Assembly (NCBI GenBank): GCA_016125215.1
Contig: WGMF01000021.1
Span: 10,439-50,438, forward strand
Reading direction: 5' to 3'
Source of the DNA: Phycisphaera sp.
GTDB taxonomy: Bacteria > Planctomycetota > Phycisphaerae > Phycisphaerales > Phycisphaeraceae
DNA length: 40,000 bases
The translations under genes were made by a program, and so were the position numbers. The notes under the pieces are model-generated. The model searched no databases. It was not told the DNA's origin and saw nothing but the letters and a program-made list of their open reading frames with translations. Of this stretch, positions 3,192 through 40,000 are shown piece by piece. Positions within the stretch are counted from its first letter, which is position 1; every line of letters begins with the position of its first letter.

Positions 3192-4049
3192 ATGGCATCG
3201 CTGGTTAAAGACCTCGTCGACGCGGGCATCCACTTCGGGCACCGCTCGACCAACTGGAACCCGAAGATGGCCCCTTACATCTTCGGCAAACGCAACAAGA
3301 TCCACGTCATCGACGTCAAGGCCACCATCAAGGGCCTCCTGCTCGCTCGCAAGTTCATCACCCGCGTCGTCGGGTCGGGCAAGGACGTGCTCTTCGTCGG
3401 CACCAAGCGACAGGCCCGTGCCTCCCTCGAATCCCACGTCCGCGAGTGCGGCATGCACTTCGTCACCGAACGCTGGCTCGGCGGAACGCTCACCAACTTC
3501 CGAACCATCCGCGAACGCCTCAAGCGTCTCGAAGAACTCGAACGCCTCGACGAAACCGGCGAGATCAACACCTACTCCAAAAAAATGGAGAGCCAGCTCA
3601 AACGCGAGAAGGAAAAAATCCTCCGCAACCTCGACGGCATCCGCAACATGACCAAGCTCCCCGGGGCCATGGTCGTCATCGACGTGCAGCGTGAACTCAA
3701 CGCCGTCAAGGAAGCCCGCAAGCTCGGCATCCCCACGGTCTGTCTCATCGACACCGACTCCGACCCCGACTACGCCGACATCCCCATCCCCGGCAACGAC
3801 GACGCCATGCGCGCCATCGACCTCGTGGTCGACGCCCTTTGCAAGGCCGTCAACGAGGGCAAACAGACGCGTGCCTCGACCGCCGCCGCCAAAGACGAGC
3901 AGGCCTCCAGCGGTGAACAACCCCGCCGGCGCAGCAGCCGTGCCAAGTTCCGCGCCGATGAACCGGTGGCGTCCGAATCAGACTCTGCCGGTGAGGGTGC
4001 CCAAAACGAGACTGTGGCCTCACAACCGCCCTCGCCCGCACAGGCCTGA
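3192..4049 (+). CDS. rpsB: 30S ribosomal protein S2
   Basis: AGGAG at 3181-3185, 6 nt before ATG 3192. N-terminus 'MASLVKDLVDAGIHFGHRSTNWNPKM' and 'ERWLGGTLTNF' are typical S2. The upstream part of the listed ORF (3003-) is non-coding leader. The C-terminal tail is acidic/low-complexity. Confidence 0.95.
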   Translation: MASLVKDLVDAGIHFGHRSTNWNPKMAPYIFGKRNKIHVIDVKATIKGLLLARKFITRVVGSGKDVLFVGTKRQARASLESHVRECGMHFVTERWLGGTLTNFRTIRERLKRLEELERLDETGEINTYSKKMESQLKREKEKILRNLDGIRNMTKLPGAMVVIDVQRELNAVKEARKLGIPTVCLIDTDSDPDYADIPIPGNDDAMRAIDLVVDALCKAVNEGKQTRASTAAAKDEQASSGEQPRRRSSRAKFRADEPVASESDSAGEGAQNETVASQPPSPAQA

Positions 4050-4175
4050 ACGGCAAGACAGGCAGATCGGCAACGCTATCTGACGATGTAACGAACGATC
4101 ACCGGAGATCGTTTACGGACCGACCCCGACCGATCTTCGGTTTACTCACCCCAACCTTTCCACGGGAGTATGACC

Positions 4176-4991
4176 ATGGCGATCTCAGCCAAGGACGTGA
4201 TGGAACTTCGAGGCCAGACGGGCCTGGGCATGATGGAGTGCAAGCAGGCTCTGGCCGAGACCGATGGCGACATCGGCAAAGCGGTCGACCTGCTGCGACA
4301 ACGCGGCCTGGCCAAGATGGACAGCCGTTCCGACCGCACCTCCGCCGAGGGCCGTGTCGCCGCCGCTCTTGCCCCCGATGGCTCCAAGGGCGCGATCGTC
4401 GAAGTCTCCACCGAGACCGACTTCACCGCCGGCAACGACGCCTTCAAGAACATGATCCAGTCCATCGCCGGCGAAGCGCTCAAGGGTTCAGCCGGTGAGG
4501 TGGCTAAGACCGATGCCATGCAGGCCGCCATCGACGAAGTCCGCCTCACGACCAAAGAGAACGTGCAGTTCGGCCGCGGCAAGGTGCTCGGCGGCAACGG
4601 CTCGAAGGTCGGCTCCTACGTCCACTTCAACGGCAAGACCGGCGCCCTGATTGAACTCGCCGGCGACACCTCGTCCGTCACCGATGACCTGCTCAAGGAA
4701 CTGTGCCAGCACATCGTGGCCGTCAGCCCCGCGCCCATCGCCGTGAGTGACGACGGCGTCCCCGCCGACGTGATCGCCAAGGAACGCGAGATCGCCAAAG
4801 CCCAGGCCATCGAGTCCGGCAAGCCCCCGCAGATCGCCGAGAAAATGGTCGAGGGTAAGATCCGCAAGTACCTCGAAGACCACGTCCTGACCAAGCAGCT
4901 CTTCATCAAGGACGACAAGAAACGCATCCACGAGATCCTGCCCAAGGGCGCGCAGATCAAGTCGTTCGCCCGCTTCGTCGTCGGCGGGTGA
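4176..4991 (+). CDS. tsf: Translation elongation factor Ts
   Basis: 'MAISAKDVMELRGQTGLGMMECKQALAETDGDIGKAVDLLRQRG' is the UBA-like EF-Ts N-terminus. GGGAG at 4164-4168 sits 7 nt before ATG 4176; the listed ATG 4170 is only 1 nt from the SD. The rpsB-tsf order is conserved. Confidence 0.93.
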   Translation: MAISAKDVMELRGQTGLGMMECKQALAETDGDIGKAVDLLRQRGLAKMDSRSDRTSAEGRVAAALAPDGSKGAIVEVSTETDFTAGNDAFKNMIQSIAGEALKGSAGEVAKTDAMQAAIDEVRLTTKENVQFGRGKVLGGNGSKVGSYVHFNGKTGALIELAGDTSSVTDDLLKELCQHIVAVSPAPIAVSDDGVPADVIAKEREIAKAQAIESGKPPQIAEKMVEGKIRKYLEDHVLTKQLFIKDDKKRIHEILPKGAQIKSFARFVVGG

Positions 4992-8146: not shown

Positions 8147-8158
8147 GCCACCGATCCA

Positions 8159-8258
8159 TTGATAATTGATGATTGATGATTGATAATCTCAGAGGCGCTC
8201 ATGGTGCCTGTGTCCTTTTGAGATCATCAATCAATCATCAATCATCAATCATCAATTG
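8159..8258. repeat. Long imperfect palindrome built from heptamers: 4 x TTGATRA, 27-nt centre, 4 x TCATCAA
   Basis: Left arm heptamers lie at 8159-8186 and right arm heptamers at 8224-8255 (one 4-nt insertion). An inner tctca/tgaga pairing extends the stem. The left arm has TGA in all three frames. Confidence 0.85.
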
Positions 8259-17227: not shown

Positions 17228-17260
17228 ACGTGGGATTGTAAAGCGGGCGGTGAATTGGCC

Positions 17261-17463
17261 GCAAATGAACGCGAATGGACGCAAATGGATGGGATCGAGG
17301 AAGATTTCACGCGGGGGTCGCCAAGAGCGCAGGGTAGAGCGTATGGGTCACACCCGGGTTTGTGATGATTGCAGGATTGAATTGGTAAACATGGGTACGG
17401 CGTTTCAATGGACACTTGGCAAGACACGGGCCTGCACATTCGCGTTTATTTGCGTTCATTCGC
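17261..17463. repeat. Inverted pair of trimeric decamer arrays (GCRAATGRAY x3) enclosing 143 bp, in the fhcD / pterin dehydratase divergent region
   Basis: Positions 17261-17290 read gcaaatgaac gcgaatggac gcaaatggat. The reverse complement of 17434-17463 reads gcgaatgaac gcaaataaac gcgaatgtgc, about 22/30 identical. Confidence 0.8.
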
Positions 17464-17533
17464 GGCTCAGCAGGGCTTTGGTGTGTGTGGAGGGTATGAT
17501 GCCTGAGAGAGCCTGATCAAGAAAGGAGATGTC

Positions 17534-22472: not shown

Positions 22473-23216
22473 ATGAAAATCGCTTTTTTCGTGACCTGCC
22501 TCACCGACACCTTCTACCCGCGCACCGGCATCGCGGCGGTCAAAGTCCTCGAACACCTCGGGCACGAGGTCGAGTTCCCTGCGCTGCAGACCTGTTGCGG
22601 GCAGCCCATGTGGAACAACGGCTTTGCCGACGAGAGCCGGGAACTGGCCAAACGCATGATCCGCGTCTTCGAGCCGTTCGATTGTGTCGTCACGCCCTCG
22701 GGCTCGTGTGCCGCCATGGTCCGCGATTACTACCCCGAGATGTTCCATCACGACCACGCCTGGGAACACGACGCCCAAAAACTGGCAGGTAAAACCTACG
22801 AGTTCGTCGAGTTCCTCGTGAAAATCCTGAAGGTCGACTTCAAAGCACTCGGTGTTCGTTGGCCAGGCAAGACGACATACCACTACTCCTGCCACCTGCG
22901 AGGCATCGGCGTCACCACCGAGGCCTCCGACACGCTCAGGCAGATCGACGGCCTGGAGTACGTCCCCCTCGAGAAAGCCGACCAGTGCTGCGGCTTCGGC
23001 GGGACCTTTGCCATCAACTACCCCGAAGTCTCCGGCTCGATGGTCCGCGACAAGGTCAACTGCATCAAAGCCACCGGTGCCCCGACCGTCGTGAGCAACG
23101 ACGCCGGCTGCACCATGAACCTCGCCGGCGCCTGCCGACGTGAGGGCGCCCACGTCGAGTTCAAAAGCCTCGCCGAAATCCTCGCGGAGGGATTGGGATT
23201 GATGGAGAATACCTGA
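22473..23216 (+). CDS. lutA: L-lactate utilization protein LutA ((Fe-S)-binding CCG-domain oxidoreductase)
   Basis: 'MKIAFFVTCLTDTFYP..CCGQP' and a second 'CCGFGG' CCG motif. ATG at 22473. Confidence 0.85.
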   Translation: MKIAFFVTCLTDTFYPRTGIAAVKVLEHLGHEVEFPALQTCCGQPMWNNGFADESRELAKRMIRVFEPFDCVVTPSGSCAAMVRDYYPEMFHHDHAWEHDAQKLAGKTYEFVEFLVKILKVDFKALGVRWPGKTTYHYSCHLRGIGVTTEASDTLRQIDGLEYVPLEKADQCCGFGGTFAINYPEVSGSMVRDKVNCIKATGAPTVVSNDAGCTMNLAGACRREGAHVEFKSLAEILAEGLGLMENT

Positions 23217-23237
23217 CATTCAGATGCCAATCAGTTT

Positions 23238-23742
23238 CTCGCGAAGACCGCGAAGGACGCGAAGATGAGTCCAAATGAGATTGAAGAGATTGGTGCTCAG
23301 GTTGTGGATTCGGCCTACAAAGTCCACCGTATACTTGGGCCGGGGCTATTGGAATCAGTTTACGAAGCCGCGATGGCCGTTGAACTCGGAAGGCGAAGTC
23401 TCCATGTGGAAAGGCAGAAGCCGATCAATGTCACCTACTAGGGCATTGACCTGGGATTGGGCTACCGGCTTGACTTGTTCGTCTGTGGTTGTGTGATCGT
23501 CGAATTGAAATCGGTCGAAAAGATGAACGACCTTTTCAAGAAACAAACATTAACCTACCTTCGCCTAACAGGAACACCGTTAGGCTTCTTGATCACTTTC
23601 AATACAGACCTGATAAAAAACGGTATTACACGGATCGTCAACAAACTCTCATCCTCAAAATACGATTCGGAACAATCCAACAGTATCTCTAACATTCCAG
23701 CAAACACCCTCTCCACTTCGCGCTCTTCGCGAGCTTCGCGAG
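23238..23742. mobile_element. Low-GC cassette bounded by 27-nt inverted repeats (3 x CGCGAAGNN) carrying the GxxExxY gene, inserted in the lutA-lutB spacer
   Basis: Left arm ctcgcgaagaccgcgaaggacgcgaag lies at 23238-23264. The reverse complement of 23716-23742 is ctcgcgaagctcgcgaagagcgcgaag, 23/27 identical. The interior is visibly more A/T-rich than the flanks. No transposase is present. Confidence 0.55.
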
Positions 23743-23753
23743 ACCCACTCTGA
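23265..23753 (+). pseudogene. GxxExxY-family protein (PD-(D/E)XK nuclease fold) interrupted by an in-frame TAG
   Basis: 'MSPNEIEEIGAQVVDSAYKVHRILGPGLLESVYEAAMAVELGRRSLHVERQKPINVTY*GIDLGLGYRLDLFVCGCVIVELKSVEKM..QTLTYLRLTG..LGFLITFN' has the GxxExxY and D..(V)ELK motifs. The TAG at 23439-23441 is in frame with both halves. Confidence 0.75.
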
Positions 23754-23755
23754 CC

Positions 23756-25258
23756 ATGCCCAAACCCACCGGCCACGACATCCTCTTCCCCTCCCTGCCT
23801 TACGACCTGCACGGGCGCGCCCAGGCCGCCACGCACGACGAGCAGCTCCAGCGGTTTGTCAATCACGCGACGCTCTCCAAGGACCAGTCGCGCAAGAAAG
23901 TCACGCTCGAGATCTACGGACGCGACCACCTCGACGACGCCCGCACTCTGGCCGGCCAGATCAAGCAGCACACCCTCGACCACCTCGACCACTACCTCGA
24001 AACCTTCGTGGACAACGCCACCCGCGCCGGGGCCAAGGTCCATTTTGCCCGCAACGGCGAACAGGCCAACGCGATCGCGGTCGCCATTGCCAAGCGCATC
24101 AACGCCCGACTCTGCGTCAAGAGCAAGAGCATGGTCACCGAGGAAACGCTGCTCCTGCCCGCGCTCGAAGCCATCGGCTGCGAGACCGTCGAGACCGACC
24201 TGGGTGAATACATCCTCCAGCTCGACCACGACGCGCCGTCGCACATCGTGACGCCCATGATCCATAAGGACCGCACCGCCGTCGCAAGGGCGTTTCAACG
24301 CGAACTGGGCGCAAAATACACCGAAGACCCCAAGGAACTGACCAAGATCGCCCGTGAAGTGCTCCGCCAGAAATACCGCAAGGCCGACCTGGGCATCAGC
24401 GGCGGCAACTTCCTCGTGGCCAGCACCGGCTCGGTCGTCATCTGCACCAACGAGGGCAACGGACGCCTCTGCACCAGCGCCCCGCGCGTCCACATCGCCT
24501 TCGTCGGCATCGAAAAACTCGTCCCCTCGCTCGAACACCTCACCGTCCTGCTCAAGATGCTCGCACGCAGCTCGACCGGGCAACCGCTGACCGTCTATAC
24601 GCACACGATGACCGGCCCCAGGAAAGCTTCCGGGGGAGAACACGACGGCCCGGAGGAGATGCACATCGTCCTCGTCGACAACGGACGCACCGAGGTGCTG
24701 CGCGAAGAGACGCGCGAGATGCTGCGCTGCATCCGCTGCGGCGCGTGCCTCAACGCCTGCCCCGTCTACCGCAAGATCGGCGGACATTCGTATGGAACCG
24801 TCTACTCCGGCCCGATCGGTGCGATCCTCTCGCCCATGTTCAAGGGCCTGGCTAACTACCCCGACCTGCCCAACGCCAGCTCCCTCTGCGGTGCGTGCTA
24901 CGAGGCCTGCCCGGTCAAGATCAACATCCCCAAGTACCTCATCCACCTGCGCGGCGAGATGGTCAGCCGAAAGATTACCAAGTGGTCAGACCGACTGCTC
25001 TACCGCCTGTGGGCCAAGTCCCTGACCAATGTCCTGACCTACCGACTTGGCGGCTGGGCACAGAAGGTCATGTTCCGCAGGCGTGCAAAGATGTTCGACA
25101 ACACCCTGCCCGAGGGCGGCAACCCCTACACCAACCGCGGCTGGGTCGGCCATTTACCGGGCAAAGTCGGCGGCTGGACCAGCGAACGCGACATGCCCAC
25201 GCCACCGGAAAAAAGCTTCCGCCAGTGGTGGGCGAAGCACTCAAGCGGTAAGCCGTAA
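23756..25258 (+). CDS. lutB: L-lactate utilization iron-sulfur protein LutB (LldF/YkgF family)
   Basis: LUD domain plus 'CIRCGACLNACPVYRKIGGHSYGTVYSGPIGAILSP' and 'CGACYEACPVKI' ferredoxin motifs. ATG at 23756. Confidence 0.9.
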   Translation: MPKPTGHDILFPSLPYDLHGRAQAATHDEQLQRFVNHATLSKDQSRKKVTLEIYGRDHLDDARTLAGQIKQHTLDHLDHYLETFVDNATRAGAKVHFARNGEQANAIAVAIAKRINARLCVKSKSMVTEETLLLPALEAIGCETVETDLGEYILQLDHDAPSHIVTPMIHKDRTAVARAFQRELGAKYTEDPKELTKIAREVLRQKYRKADLGISGGNFLVASTGSVVICTNEGNGRLCTSAPRVHIAFVGIEKLVPSLEHLTVLLKMLARSSTGQPLTVYTHTMTGPRKASGGEHDGPEEMHIVLVDNGRTEVLREETREMLRCIRCGACLNACPVYRKIGGHSYGTVYSGPIGAILSPMFKGLANYPDLPNASSLCGACYEACPVKINIPKYLIHLRGEMVSRKITKWSDRLLYRLWAKSLTNVLTYRLGGWAQKVMFRRRAKMFDNTLPEGGNPYTNRGWVGHLPGKVGGWTSERDMPTPPEKSFRQWWAKHSSGKP

Positions 25259-25312
25259 TTGTTTTGGATGCCATGGTCGAATGGCCAATGAACACATCCC
25301 AATGACCAACGT
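25220..25312 (+). repeat. Direct repeat copy A (includes the last ~13 codons of lutB plus an AATGACCAATGAAC-type element)
   Basis: Aligns by eye with 25939-26031 at roughly three quarters identity with one 2-nt indel: cgccagtggtgggcgaagcactcaagcggtaagccg... versus cgccagaaatgggtgaaatactcaagtggcaaaccg... Confidence 0.7.
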
Positions 25313-25350
25313 TGGGTTCACCCCATTGGGCATTTAATCATGGTCATTGG

Positions 25351-25653
25351 TCATTTTCTCTTGGATCCGTGAACGAAGCCCAGCATGGTCTCGGTTTTCC
25401 CATCTTTGTTCACCGTGTAGGTGAGAAGGTAGTGTCCGAAGTTGGCCTTGCGGGTCTCGCGTTTCACAGCTTGTGTGAGTACCCGATCGACGGGATAACG
25501 CTCCAACCATTCGCTCAGGCTGTCCACCAACATGAATAATTAGCCGTACCAGCGATCGATGGTTTGCTGGGATACACCCTCACTACGAAGAAAGGCGAGG
25601 TGGTCGTCCAGGTTGGTGGTGAACTCATCGGTGAACAGGACGCGATAGCTCAT
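25351..25653 (-). pseudogene. RelE/ParE-family toxin with an in-frame TAA
   Basis: ATG 25653 overlaps the antitoxin stop (ATGA). The product reads 'MSYRVLFTDEFTTNLDDHLAFLRSEGVSQQTIDRWYG*LFMLVDSLSEWLERYP..GHYLLTYTVNKDGKTETMLGFVHGSKR'. The TAA at 25540-25542 is in the same frame as both halves. The C-terminal 'Y.L.Y.V....v.......HG.R' pattern is ParE/RelE-like. Confidence 0.65.
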
Positions 25654-25898
25654 CCGGGTGGCACCAGACTGTGCTTTTTCGCCAACTCATTCATCGCTTC
25701 ATGAGCGTCACGCACCTTACCGGCTTTAGCATCCGCCAAGCCTCGCTGGGTGCGCACGAGTAGTTCTGCGTGGACGTCGGGGTCGTCTTCGAGATCGAGC
25801 TGGTCGCTGACCACCTGCGCGACATAGGCTGCCACGTCGCCGTCCACGTGCTTACGCACACGGGCATCCAGATCATCGGGGACTTCCCATTTCGCCAT
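25650..25898 (-). CDS. Putative antitoxin (ParD/RHH-like) of the adjacent toxin
   Basis: 82 aa, acidic, ending in a 'GLADAKAGKVRDAHEAMNEL' type C-terminus. It is upstream of and 4-nt-overlapping the toxin. ATG 25898 is preferred over the listed TTG 25913. Confidence 0.6.
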   Translation of the reverse strand: MAKWEVPDDLDARVRKHVDGDVAAYVAQVVSDQLDLEDDPDVHAELLVRTQRGLADAKAGKVRDAHEAMNELAKKHSLVPPG

Positions 25899-25927
25899 GG
25901 ATGATGCACTCAAAAGCTGCCCGTCGT

Positions 25928-25933
25928 ATTATA
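25928..25933 (-). promoter_or_regulatory. Perfect TATAAT -10 box about 30 nt upstream of the antitoxin ATG
   Basis: The + strand reads attata at 25928-25933, which is TATAAT on the - strand. The -35 is only weak (TTTCAC at 17-nt spacing). Confidence 0.35.
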
Positions 25934-25938
25934 TCCAT

Positions 25939-26031
25939 CGCCAGAAATGGGTGAAATACTCAAGTGGCAAACCGACATTTTTATCTGGAAGCTGTAGGCG
26001 AATGACCAATGAACAAATCCTAATGACCCAT
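25939..26031 (+). repeat. Direct repeat copy B (degenerate duplicate of the lutB 3' end plus repeat element)
   Basis: Translates as '..HRQKWVKYSSGKP..', compared with the LutB C-terminus '..FRQWWAKHSSGKP*'. See copy A. Confidence 0.7.
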
Positions 26032-26063
26032 GACAGACTTTCTCCATGGGTCATTTCTTTTCC
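26022..26063. terminator. Hairpin terminator between the lutB-remnant side and the convergent DUF4139 gene
   Basis: Perfect 11-bp stem aatgacccatg(26022-26032)/catgggtcatt(26045-26055) with a 12-nt loop, then tcttttcc. The opposite strand has a moderately U-rich tail. Confidence 0.6.
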
Positions 26064-28226: not shown

Positions 28227-29004
28227 GGGGATCAACGCAAATGAACGCGAGCAACGGTATGACGGGATCGCAGGATCAGCAGATTCACCTGGATGATTTT
28301 GTCCGTGACAGAGACCCTGACCGCGTTGAACAGGATCAGACACCCGCACCTGACCCTGGAATGCCAGCCCCGATCGGTGGGTGCGCCCGCGAGGTGGGGC
28401 ACTCACACCGCAATGCCCCGACGGGGCACGGAAGCTTGATGACCACAAAACCCGGTGACGCTCAGCCCGCGCATGTGCCGCATCGACCCGCTGCCATGAA
28501 CCGGCAATGACAGCGCCGGTCGGGGTGCTTGCACAACTCACGATCATCCTCACCGGTTCGATGGGTTATCCAGAGCAACCACAGATTTCACAGATGACGC
28601 AGATTCAGAGCGGGACATGTGAAGAGGTATCCGCAGATTACGCAGATTTCACAGACTCAGAGCGGGGGGCGGAGAAAGATCAATCCGCAGATGACACAGA
28701 TGCCGAGTCGGATGGGGCATGATCCAACCCATTCTGGTCCAACGCGAAGTAACCGAGCATAAAGCCGGCGATGTCATTGCCGGTCTACATATGCCTACGA
28801 CATACGTCTGTCACTCGCGCATTTCACCCACTGGCAAACAAGCCGTCAGTGGCACCCGTCCGAGGGTGGAGCACTTCATCACTCCAAATCCAGTTAACTC
28901 ACAACCTGTGCATGTACTGCAACGGCCCGCTGTCGGGGACCCACGATGCCATCGCCGGCTTTATGACGATCGGCATCTATTCGCGTTTATTGGCGTTCAT
29001 TCGC
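28227..29004. repeat. Non-coding island bounded by inverted trimeric decamer arrays (same family as 17261-17463)
   Basis: Positions 28227-28256 read ggggatcaac gcaaatgaac gcgagcaacg (degenerate). The reverse complement of 28975-29004 reads gcgaatgaac gccaataaac gcgaatagat. The 718 bp between them has no convincing ORF on either strand. Confidence 0.5.
28580..28717 (+). repeat. Three direct copies (period 52-54 nt) of a ~35-nt unit = (CRCAGATNN)x3 + AGAGCGGG
   Basis: Copies lie at 28580-28614, 28632-28666 and 28686-28717 (the last degenerate), separated by 17-19-nt unrelated spacers. Confidence 0.75.
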
Positions 29005-29028
29005 GGCTCTTCCTGAGGCTTGGACTAC

Positions 29029-38037: not shown

Positions 38038-38092
38038 ATCGTGAAAGTTGTGTGATGGTGGATGTTATTCAGCGGGCTTGCATCACTGATCT

Positions 38093-38220
38093 GCCCTCCC
38101 TCTTCAGAGGGAGGGGTTGGGGGAGGGTGTGGCTTGCATACTACGCATGTTGATGACTCACAGAGGTCCCCTCCCCCAGCCCCTCCCCCAGCCCCTCCCC
38201 TTGAAAGAGGAGGGGAGGAA
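38093..38220. repeat. G/C-tract palindromic element in the spacer between two co-directional genes (12-mer CCCCTCCCCCAG x ~3 plus two local hairpins)
   Basis: Hairpin ccctccctc(38094-38102)/gagggaggg(38107-38115). Tandem 12-mers lie at 38168-38200. Hairpin cctcccct(38194-38201)/aggggagg(38211-38218). Positions 38111-38129 are nearly the reverse complement of part of 38169-38199. Confidence 0.8.
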
Positions 38221-39780: not shown

Positions 39781-39827
39781 CTTGGGTCACTCCTTTGAAT
39801 CTACTTGGTTGCGGCATCGAAATCAGC

Positions 39828-39911
39828 CGCAGAGTACGCAGAGTACGCTGAGAGGAAAGTAAAGATCATCATTTTTGATTTGCTTTCTCCGCGATCTCTG
39901 CGATCTCTGCG
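39828..39911. repeat. Inverted pair of trimeric nonamer arrays (CGCAGAGTA type) with a 30-nt A/T-rich centre
   Basis: Positions 39828-39854 read cgcagagta cgcagagta cgctgagag. The reverse complement of 39885-39911 reads cgcagagat cgcagagat cgcggagaa, 21/27 identical. Confidence 0.8.
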
Positions 39912-40000
39912 GTAATATGTTTTCTTGGTATGTCACAGTGTATTAGTGAAACGACTCAACTCAATTGCAGTTTACTCGTCTGTGTCAGGTACACGGGGAT

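Follow-up and report, generated by a model that had tools for sequence, protein, structure and literature searches.

Background

Among described systems, those closest to the element considered here are the repetitive extragenic palindromes (REPs), their inverted, hairpin-forming doublets (REPINs) and the REP-associated tyrosine transposases (RAYTs). RAYTs are described as single-copy genes that seldom occur on plasmids and have over-represented 16-mers at their flanks (PMC5581495), and REPs are found in head-head and tail-tail dimers and in clusters (PMC3733652). The element in question is a cassette lying between lutA and lutB in a stretch of 40,000 nt from Phycisphaera sp. (contig WGMF01000021.1, positions 10,439 to 50,438), referred to below, at its full length, as the window. 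It consists of a gene of the GxxExxY family (PF13366, PDDEXK_3) bounded by inverted arms, each made of three short tandem units. The initial annotation of the window proposed a REP/RAYT-like relationship, in which GxxExxY proteins would be the trans-acting enzymes that spread or maintain such arms.

A census of PD-(D/E)XK proteins lists PF13366 as having an unknown function and a history of multiple horizontal transfers (PMC3424549). The PF13366/TIGR04256 family is very large, with 7,997 of 8,000 scored candidates passing E <= 1e-10. In the literature searched, GxxExxY proteins are named in three papers, in one of them just in passing, and the arm sequences were not found; the REP literature searched does not mention the family. 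A partnership between this gene family and dispersed hairpins is apparently undescribed so far. The most likely interpretation of the data presented here, made by analogy, is that GxxExxY proteins are the cognate sequence-specific enzymes of dispersed REPIN-like hairpin repeats.

A decayed cassette in the lutA-lutB spacer

The cassette occupies positions 23237-23743 of the window, a length of 507 nt, and its GC content (0.39-0.51) is low relative to that of the surrounding DNA (about 0.65), as had been annotated. The locus is arranged as follows.

22473..23216, plus strand: lutA (CCG-domain subunit), the upstream neighbour; Pfam CCG E 1.3e-33, and also called as a gene in Logan contig L001, which is identical
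23237..23264, plus strand: left arm, TCTCGCGAAGACCGCGAAGGACGCGAAG; outer tag TCT, then CGCGAAG three times (23240-46, 23249-55, 23258-64)
23265..23753, plus strand: GxxExxY/PDDEXK_3 gene, decayed; profile matches and an in-frame TAG
23716..23743, plus strand: right arm, CTTCGCGCTCTTCGCGAGCTTCGCGAGA; CTTCGCG three times (23716-22, 23725-31, 23734-40), then outer tag AGA
23756..25258, plus strand: lutB (LUD, Fer4/4Fe-4S and LutB_C domains by Pfam), the downstream neighbour; 100% identical to protein P0121

Between the lutA stop codon (23214-23216) and the left arm there are 20 nt, and between the right arm and the lutB ATG (23756) there are 12 nt; the distances first given, 21 and 13 nt, were right to within 1 nt. 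Without positions 23237-23743, the spacer would be about 32 nt. The left arm has the layout TCT-CGCGAAG-AC-CGCGAAG-GA-CGCGAAG, with a period of 9 nt, and its end at 23264 directly adjoins the start codon at 23265, again as annotated. The right arm (CTTCGCG-CT-CTTCGCG-AG-CTTCGCG-AGA) lies inside the 3' end of the reading frame and is the reverse complement of the left arm save for four spacer bases. The claim of 27-nt inverted arms, of three units each and matching at 23 of 27 positions, is therefore borne out by the sequence, with all four mismatches falling within the 2-nt spacers between units; a repeat search extends the pair to 33 nt, with 82% complementarity. The 1.2 kb around the locus was simulated 200 times with a first-order Markov model, in which the best inverted match over 27 nt had a mean of 18.0 (standard deviation 0.86) and a maximum of 22, against the 23 observed. 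When joined via a short linker, the arms have a DNA fold of -30.6 kcal/mol (z = -7.6).

The sole cargo is, as proposed, a member of the GxxExxY family with a nuclease-type fold, although the gene is decayed. It matches PF13366 (E 2.9e-37, 128.1 bits against a cut-off of 22, residues 8-124, profile positions 2-117 of 117) and TIGR04256 (E 9.5e-39, 132.4 bits against a cut-off of 35), and has GLLESVY, RLD and ELK at the invariant columns, with E30, D70, E80 and K82 kept. An in-frame TAG at 23439-23441 occupies codon 59, where the family consensus is glutamate. The homologous part of the gene ends near 23639 and is followed by an AT-rich, non-homologous tail of 37 codons, without counterpart in relatives, which continues across the right arm and ends in a TGA at 23751-23753. 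Typical relatives are 125-127 residues long and have their stop codon 5-13 nt ahead of the right arm; with its TAG and displaced stop, the window copy lacks an intact open reading frame (ORF) of about 125 residues. Gene calling in contig L001 yields merely a 58-residue product, and the best relative of the window protein among 5.8 billion proteins is 65% identical. Because of the nonsense codon, the lost stop and the mismatched spacers, the window copy cannot be an active enzyme here: it is the decayed relic of a conserved two-part module, the enzyme gene of which is dead at this locus. There is no second GxxExxY gene within the 40-kb window.

Inverted trimeric arrays frame GxxExxY genes across phyla

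The distribution of such arms around other members of the family was studied at 80 loci from more than ten phyla (Acidobacteriota, Verrucomicrobiota, Planctomycetota, Cyanobacteria, Bacteroidota, Pseudomonadota, Chloroflexota, Gemmatimonadota, Ignavibacteria and others), obtained from one scan of a genome collection with an alignment of homologues as query. When ungapped inverted repeats were sought that pair the 150 nt upstream of each gene with the 250 nt downstream, arms emerged at nearly every locus, and these conform to one consensus, tYTCR-(CGCRRAG-N)x3 ... gene ... (N-CTYYGCG)x3-YGARa, with units of 8-9 nt, a CGCRRAG core and an outer tag TCTCR. The left arm of the window agrees with this family-wide pattern in the form tYTCR-(CGCRRAG-N1-2)x3. 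Arrays of at least three units are present at 2.81 per kb within 300 nt of the genes and at 0.068 per kb elsewhere in the same loci, which is a 41-fold enrichment, and shuffled loci contain none. The annotation had left it to be checked whether other GxxExxY genes are flanked by arms: among the 79 genes with full flanks, 75 have arrays, on both sides in 59 cases and on one side in 16, leaving 4 with arrays on neither. The combination of the gene with inverted trimeric arms is a near-universal property of the family, and no accident of the lut locus.

The architecture is also quite uniform. Exactly three units are found in 133 of 147 arrays, and 258 of 309 intervals have a period of 8 nt, which makes the 9-nt period of the window a minority form. 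The usual cassette is compact, comprising an arm, 4-8 nt, the ATG, an ORF of 375-384 nt, the stop codon, 5-13 nt and the opposite arm. The TCTCR tag lies on the outside (arm, gene, arm') in 37 genes and faces the gene in 14 (type 2); empty hairpins likewise exist in both orientations. The arrays account for odd terminal extensions of annotated GxxExxY proteins, which are translated arms: examples are the C-terminal SRPSRSSRD tail of P0110 and the N-terminal SREDAKARR of P0119. They also mark small insertions within operons, as cassettes of arms and gene recur in operon spacers, between fabD and fabG in Sphingomonas and between radA and a gene for an FAD protein in Bacteroides. A further one is found in Bernardetia, between ade and the gene for mannose-1-phosphate guanylyltransferase.

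One metagenome-assembled genome of the Bryobacterales (L017:2900-4760) has four GxxExxY tblastn matches, two of them overlapping, within about 1.8 kb; arrays of both orientations are interleaved there, the gene at 3697-4080 being framed arm/arm' and that at 4326-4709 arm'/arm. In three cyanobacterial loci (L007, L014 and L037, from Nostoc and Chroococcales), DNA outside both arms is also conserved between genomes, with AACATGAGTTAGGATTGT upstream and AGTATAAGTTGCCGGAGT downstream, the latter as its reverse complement. This suggests either a larger conserved unit or conserved insertion sites.

Unit sequence follows protein lineage

The CGCAAAG core is retained in loci ranging from 0.32 to 0.70 in GC content, and unit variants (CGCAGAG, CGCGGAG, CGCGAAG, CACAAAG, CACCAAG and others) shift jointly in both arms. 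Across 69 loci, protein identity is negatively correlated with the distance between unit profiles (Spearman -0.39, Mantel p = 0.0005), and the partial correlation controlling for difference in GC is the same (-0.39, p = 0.001). Units and protein lineages co-diverge, independently of GC, and the arm sequence is under constraint from something that travels with the gene.

More distant GxxExxY clades have other units: CGCAGAT in the viral contig L252, GGACTGAAGA in L254 and L258, the proteins of which are 77% identical, and CGCGGAT, CGCCGAT, CGGATG and GGAT-type units across L255, L257, L261 and L262. Non-tandem or direct repeats are found beside the gene in Treponema, Fusobacteria and Prevotella. 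The GxxExxY genes of Persicobacter, Fusobacteria and Prevotella plasmids (L250, L247 and L248) encode proteins 33-43% identical to P0002; in Persicobacter, TAATCC-type tandem arrays lie on either side of the gene in the same orientation, and in Fusobacteria CAGATTTAATCCGTGTACCTAT is present on both sides.

Arrays dispersed without the gene

An exact copy of the 23-nt arm pattern is present in 62 viral contigs, in none of which could a GxxExxY relative be found (best tblastn E 0.07). Here the arrays take the form of short-loop hairpins with conserved loops, of dense, BIME-like intergenic series, and of brackets around ordinary genes. Hairpin clusters, or multi-copy hairpins with conserved loops, are observed in L022, L023, L090 and L120, and complete hairpins stand in tandem beside the gene in L022 (six of about 79 nt) and L023 (three of about 96 nt). 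Two features of the window have unit types that also occur beside GxxExxY genes.

39826..39913, unstranded: empty hairpin of CGCAGAG type, belonging to the gene-linked superfamily; GCCGCAGAGTACGCAGAGTACGCTGAG, loop of about 33 nt, CTCCGCGATCTCTGCGATCTCTGCGGT (pair 39828-39911, CGCAGAGTA and TCTCTGCGA)
28634..28655, unstranded: solo array CGCAGATTA-CGCAGATTT-CACAGA, of the CGCAGAT unit type

The hairpin at 39826-39913 has a DNA fold of -26.2 kcal/mol (z = -6.2) and is the one further CGCAGAG hairpin of the window, and so provides partial evidence that the repeat is over-represented within these 40 kb. The CGCAGAT unit type also flanks the GxxExxY gene of L252, which is 49% identical.

Dispersal is also seen in Gemmatirosa kalamazoonensis, in which plasmid 1 carries three GxxExxY paralogues, each beside a different hairpin family. 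A frameshifted member of the core clade (L253) lies beside CGCAGAGGN hairpins, L254 beside GGACTGAAGA hairpins and L255 beside a CGCGGATNN hairpin. These flanking families are over-represented across the two megaplasmids, at 18 to at least 78 places: at least 39 on plasmid 1 and 39 on plasmid 2 for CGCAGAGGN, at least 40 and 28 for GGACTGAAGA, and 7 and 11 for CGCGGATNN. Protein searches of plasmid 2 gave no GxxExxY match, and the GGACTGAAGA and CGCGGATNN hairpins occur in no other plasmid record. Two of the genes sit between two complete hairpins and not inside a loop. The GGACTGAAGA hairpins at L254:555-700 and 1150-1318 are bracketed on either side by a CCACGTACGTGG palindrome, so the repeated element is larger than the stem of tandem units. 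Hidden Markov model searches of a 200-kb Gemmatirosa sample recovered just the three known GxxExxY genes.

The annotation had further asked whether paralogues correspond to repeat families. In this genome three paralogues accompany three dispersed families, as predicted, but the mapping is not a closed one-to-one relationship, as the 200-kb sample contains additional array families without a gene. Co-occurrence on plasmids was also sought by BLAST with a consensus hairpin, which returned three records; the sensitivity of this search was too low and it was not used.

The gene looks sedentary

Two sets of identical proteins, P0011 (12 contigs) and P0041 (13 contigs), are always found in the same genomic context, and near-identical copies of the element in several contexts were not found. 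None of 50,697 phage records contains the gene, which was recovered once among 2.9 million viral contigs and from 8 of 72,556 plasmids. At 47 arm pairs the abutting direct repeats (absent in 30 cases, 1 nt long in 11) are distributed as in a null with shuffled partners, and target-site duplications were not found; the flanks in the window read ...cagtt and ...ccact. A classical transposon with terminal inverted repeats, or a miniature inverted-repeat transposable element, was rejected on the lack of target-site duplications beyond chance and of identical copies in multiple contexts. The gene itself looks sedentary, with one context per identical protein and rarity on plasmids and phages; these traits are unlike those of insertion sequences and match those reported for RAYTs.

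A predicted PD-(D/E)XK nuclease

The AlphaFold2 model of an intact planctomycete homologue has a predicted local distance difference test score of 93.4, and its recognisable Foldseek matches are all to PD-(D/E)XK nucleases, although all are weak. The best is the Cas4 protein SSO0001 (E 1.5e-3); others are tRNA-splicing endonucleases, AdnAB, Bax1, lambda exonuclease, the homing endonuclease I-Bth0305I (E 0.34) and Hjc. A sequence search of the PDB gave no match. In 85 sequences, E, D and ExK are invariant or nearly so, and nuclease activity is therefore to be expected of intact GxxExxY proteins. PADLOC and PHROGs returned nothing specific, the only signal being a weak similarity of one homologue to a Cas4-like core (E 1e-3); a role as a defence system or as a phage gene was rejected on this result and on the absence of the gene from the phage collection.

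The corresponding spacer in relatives

Among the relatives found, identity does not exceed 75% for LutB and 71% for LutA, which restricts the comparison to distant spacers, with no filled and empty pair at strain level. A check proposed with the original hypothesis was whether relatives without the gene carry the same arms in this spacer, and this is partly the case: in L144 and L188, degenerate CGCGAAG/CGCAAAG arms are found in its absence. The 44-nt spacer of L144 reads TAA-agtg-TCTCGCGAAGCCCGCGAAG-ttcaaaccacaga-CTTCGC-ag-ATG; its outer end equals that of the left arm in the window, two units are present, and the right arm is a mere stub. In L188, GGTTCACGTAAAGACCGCAAAGACCGTTAAGAGCGCAAAG is separated from CCTTTGCGTGAACC by a loop of about 35 nt. 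These arms may be relics of gene loss or, alternatively, pre-existing landing pads.

The same spacer contains other insertions elsewhere. In L147 (1866-2000), ten GATGGAT heptamers lie opposite ATCCATC units; L146 (1376-2000) and L173 have a gene for a nucleotidyltransferase-like protein of 150 residues, and L198 has a small DUF433-like ORF; L207 and L209 have an insert of about 1 kb that opens with GAAGCGTGA-type tandem units; and further relatives carry small genes resembling toxin-antitoxin systems. Both hairpins and small cargo thus recur in the lutA-lutB spacer, a hot spot for such insertions.

A proposed repeat-enzyme partnership

The preferred interpretation, with a probability of roughly 0.45, is of a repeat-enzyme partnership analogous to that of REPINs and RAYTs but built on a PD-(D/E)XK nuclease and trimeric arms, of which the cassette in the window would be a dead relic. 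The gene would have no promoter of its own and be read off the host transcript, and the protein would bind the three tandem units of each arm. Folding calculations indicate that arm doublets can form stems of 23-28 bp as single-stranded DNA. The E...D...ExK site would then cut at the arrays, allowing hairpin doublets to be copied or relocated, in trans, to intergenic and intercistronic spacers, with the gene itself remaining in place. Such recognition could both hold the unit sequence constant over hosts of 32-70% GC and drive the co-divergence of units and protein lineages.

Several observations weigh against this interpretation. We infer, rather than observe, that GxxExxY proteins bind, cleave and move the arrays, and the copy in the window is a pseudogene. 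Four of the 79 genes have no arrays within 300 nt, and some divergent members are flanked by direct, not inverted, repeats (Persicobacter, Fusobacteria, Prevotella). The L254 and L257 proteins are 71% identical yet have different units. Arrays occur where no gene is visible, in viral contigs and on Gemmatirosa plasmid 2, which requires action in trans and which the rival explanations fit equally well; the 200-kb Gemmatirosa sample also contains GGGACTC, GGACAGGAT and CACGGAGGA arrays with no gene for them there, and the heptamer families of the window and of phage contigs have no known partner. A single GxxExxY-linked array is a direct tandem of three units of 8-10 nt and not, unlike a REP, palindromic. 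The degenerate arms of gene-less relatives in the lutA-lutB spacer belong with these points.

A broader proposition is put forward tentatively. GxxExxY proteins could constitute a second, structurally unrelated class of repeat-associated enzyme, the PD-(D/E)XK counterpart of the RAYTs, that generates and maintains hairpins of trimeric 8-10-nt arrays in more than ten phyla, with each lineage tuned to its own unit; unexplained short tandem intergenic repeats of cyanobacteria, planctomycetes and their phages would perhaps be of the same class. The conserved DNA context, with trimeric arrays that track protein lineage, provides the first testable handle on what GxxExxY proteins recognise. If the analogy is true, REP-like genome-structuring repeats arose at least twice, with unrelated enzymes; this would inform the debate as to whether such pairs of repeat and enzyme are parasites or domesticated replicators, and repeat families said to 'lack a dedicated transposase' (PMC3733652) would gain candidate enzymes.

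Alternative explanations

One alternative, which seems unlikely, is that the gene is a selfish element that targets hairpins: a homing-type nuclease would enter hairpins of its unit type without spreading them, the hairpins existing for host or other reasons, much as some insertion sequences target REPs. The degenerate arms without a gene in L144 and L188 would fit a pre-existing landing pad, many type-1 cassettes resemble a gene in a hairpin loop, one arm lying 4-8 nt ahead of the ATG and the other 5-13 nt past the stop, and I-Bth0305I is among the fold matches, if weakly. Co-divergence of protein and units is equally compatible with target recognition. However, tens of hairpins go with a single gene, and near-identical copies of the gene are absent, whereas an active homing gene should occupy many sites; one unit core over 32-70% GC and over phyla is unexplained unless the nuclease maintains it; and neither the 14 type-2 genes, between outward-facing arms, nor the Gemmatirosa genes between complete hairpins are in the position expected.

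Somewhat less probable again is an element that acts at the level of RNA. The arms would pair in the transcript around the ORF and the stem would be processed by RNase III or by the GxxExxY protein, insulating the operon and setting the expression of the inserted gene, with the dispersed hairpins serving as intercistronic elements for mRNA stability or processing. This is consistent with the location of cassettes inside operons (lutA-lutB, fabD-fabG, radA-FAD protein), with the absence of promoter-like or terminator-like sites when the cassette was scanned, and with the end of the left arm 0-8 nt before the start codon, where its purine-rich sequence (AAAG/GGAG) is a possible ribosome-binding site. 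Hairpins of unrelated units occupy the same place in relatives' lutA-lutB spacers (L147), and tRNA-splicing endonucleases are among the weak fold matches. If RNA pairing were under selection, an excess of G:U over A:C would be expected, but the sense-strand mismatches among 1,779 arm base pairs number 47 G:U and 45 A:C, and this lack of asymmetry lends no support. Rfam 15 at gathering score gave no match in the window or in eight array-rich loci, and pairing does not explain a conserved unit sequence that tracks protein lineage.

It is improbable that the arrays are operators, that is, binding sites for GxxExxY as a DNA-binding autoregulator or as a nucleoid or regulatory factor, with no mobility of the repeats. 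The constant number of units per array (three in 133 of 147), their position next to the start codon and their co-divergence with the protein would all be expected of such sites. Against this, the invariant catalytic E/D/ExK residues argue for a nuclease over a binder, the tandem complete hairpins with conserved loops and flanks in L022 and L023 resemble amplified repeats, and arrays are found in phage contigs too.

Just as improbable is that the geometry is neutral debris without a present mechanism, an idea confined to the window copy, where the in-frame TAG, the lost stop codon, the AT-rich tail, the mismatch of all four spacer bases and a locus that looks degraded overall, lacking lutC, may well suit a dead gene with leftover repeats, but which cannot account for the 41-fold enrichment across phyla or for arms kept around intact genes.

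Other repeats in the window

The remaining inverted pairs of the window have different units.

8158-8256: inverted pair of ATTGATG heptamers
17256..17466, unstranded: inverted pair of 10-nt units, CGCAAATGNA three times and CATTCGCGTT three times, with a 149-nt loop
25280-25355 and 26001-26058: inverted pairs of CCAATGA heptamers
38091-38217: G-rich/C-rich inverted pair of GGGAGGGG type, GGGAGGGGTTGGGGGAGGG and CCCCTCCCCCAGCCCCTCCC, with a loop of about 43 nt and 2.8 copies of a 12-nt unit, CCCCTCCCCCAG

The initial annotation had pointed to many such 'empty' pairs as the dispersed counterpart of the cassette. They are indeed present, but the ATTGATG, CCAATGA and GGGAGGGG families have no demonstrated GxxExxY partner, because all 80 close relatives share one arm superfamily (CGCRRAG). 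The 10-nt family at 17256-17466 is likewise without a known GxxExxY partner. A third array of this AAACGCGAAT/CGCAAATGNA family is located at 28978-29005, and the AAACGCGAAT unit is also found at L123:2579-2611, in the viral contig IMGVR_UViG_3300035698_021332 (GC 0.66), whose source may be a phage or the genome of a related planctomycete.

The two CCAATGA/TTGGTCA-type heptamer hairpins lie directly after lutB (25259-26058), at the place taken by lutC in relatives. Between them are an antitoxin-like ORF of 87 residues (25650-25913, minus strand) and the split remnant of a ParE-like toxin (25351-25533; PF05016 E 0.025, below the cut-off). No lutC homologue could be found in the 40 kb (best tblastn E 1.0).

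In the phage-like IMG/VR contigs L122, L115, L117 and L090/L103, inverted arrays of tandem heptamers surround nearly every gene, and neighbouring genes differ in their unit family (GGAGTTA, GGATTTT, GGGGACA, GTGGGTA, TTATTGG), much like an 'address' for each gene. No GxxExxY gene is present in these contigs.

Comparison with known systems

Five types of described element share some feature of the GxxExxY cassettes. The ORF-bearing intervening sequences of 23S rRNA encode a four-helix-bundle 'IVS protein' (PF05635/TIGR02436), lie in rRNA helices, and are known to be processed by RNase III. As with GxxExxY, a small ORF of unknown function is carried in an inverted-repeat stem of a host transcript, with many paralogues and a patchy distribution over phyla. 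The protein family is a different one, however, and the host of the GxxExxY cassette is the spacer of an mRNA operon in which no RNA-level signal was found.

The short tandemly repeated repetitive (STRR) heptamer sequences of cyanobacteria were reportedly described by Mazel et al. in 1990. They too are made of short tandem units dispersed between genes, often as inverted pairs, and TTGGTCA-like and ATTGATG heptamers occur in the window and in phage contigs; the arms linked to GxxExxY genes differ in having periods of 8-10 nt and other units. To our knowledge, no enzyme has been linked to STRR sequences.

IS1397 and ISKpn1 are insertion sequences that target REPs, with DDE transposases, ends of their own and multiple copies. 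The likeness is that of a protein-coding element placed in or next to REP-like hairpins through recognition, whereas GxxExxY is a nuclease gene of roughly 125 residues that lacks any further element structure and does not occur in identical copies.

TnsA of Tn7, the Rpn/YhgA-like PDDEXK_2 proteins and homing endonucleases such as I-Bth0305I belong to the same fold superfamily and provide a precedent for cutting at element ends or homing sites. We know of none that has flanking arms of trimeric tandem units, and beyond the fold there is no detectable sequence relationship with GxxExxY (Foldseek E >= 1.5e-3; PDB search empty). PDDEXK_2 has been entered as a putative transposase (PMC3424549).

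The closest resemblance is to the REP/REPIN-RAYT system (PMC3116915, PMC3733652 and PMC5581495). In both, a mostly chromosomal gene, apparently in single copy, has flanking repeats, and these are over-represented in the rest of the genome; the repeats form inverted doublets able to fold into hairpins, in head-head and tail-tail arrangement and in tandem clusters; they occupy intergenic and intercistronic spacers; and paralogues have their own repeat families, without target-site duplications. The differences are that RAYTs are HUH/Y1 enzymes (IS200-like), whereas GxxExxY is assigned to PD-(D/E)XK by Pfam, NCBIfam and AlphaFold2 with Foldseek; that the GTAG or CGTC tag of REPs is absent from GxxExxY arms, which have the outer tag TCTCR instead; and that the CGCRRAG core spans more than ten phyla, while most REP families are confined to one or a few species. 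As the fold and the repeat architecture differ, the GxxExxY system is not a member of REP/RAYT. What stands of the relationship first proposed is that the two appear to work alike, in the framing of the gene, the dispersal of its arrays and the repeat families of its paralogues.

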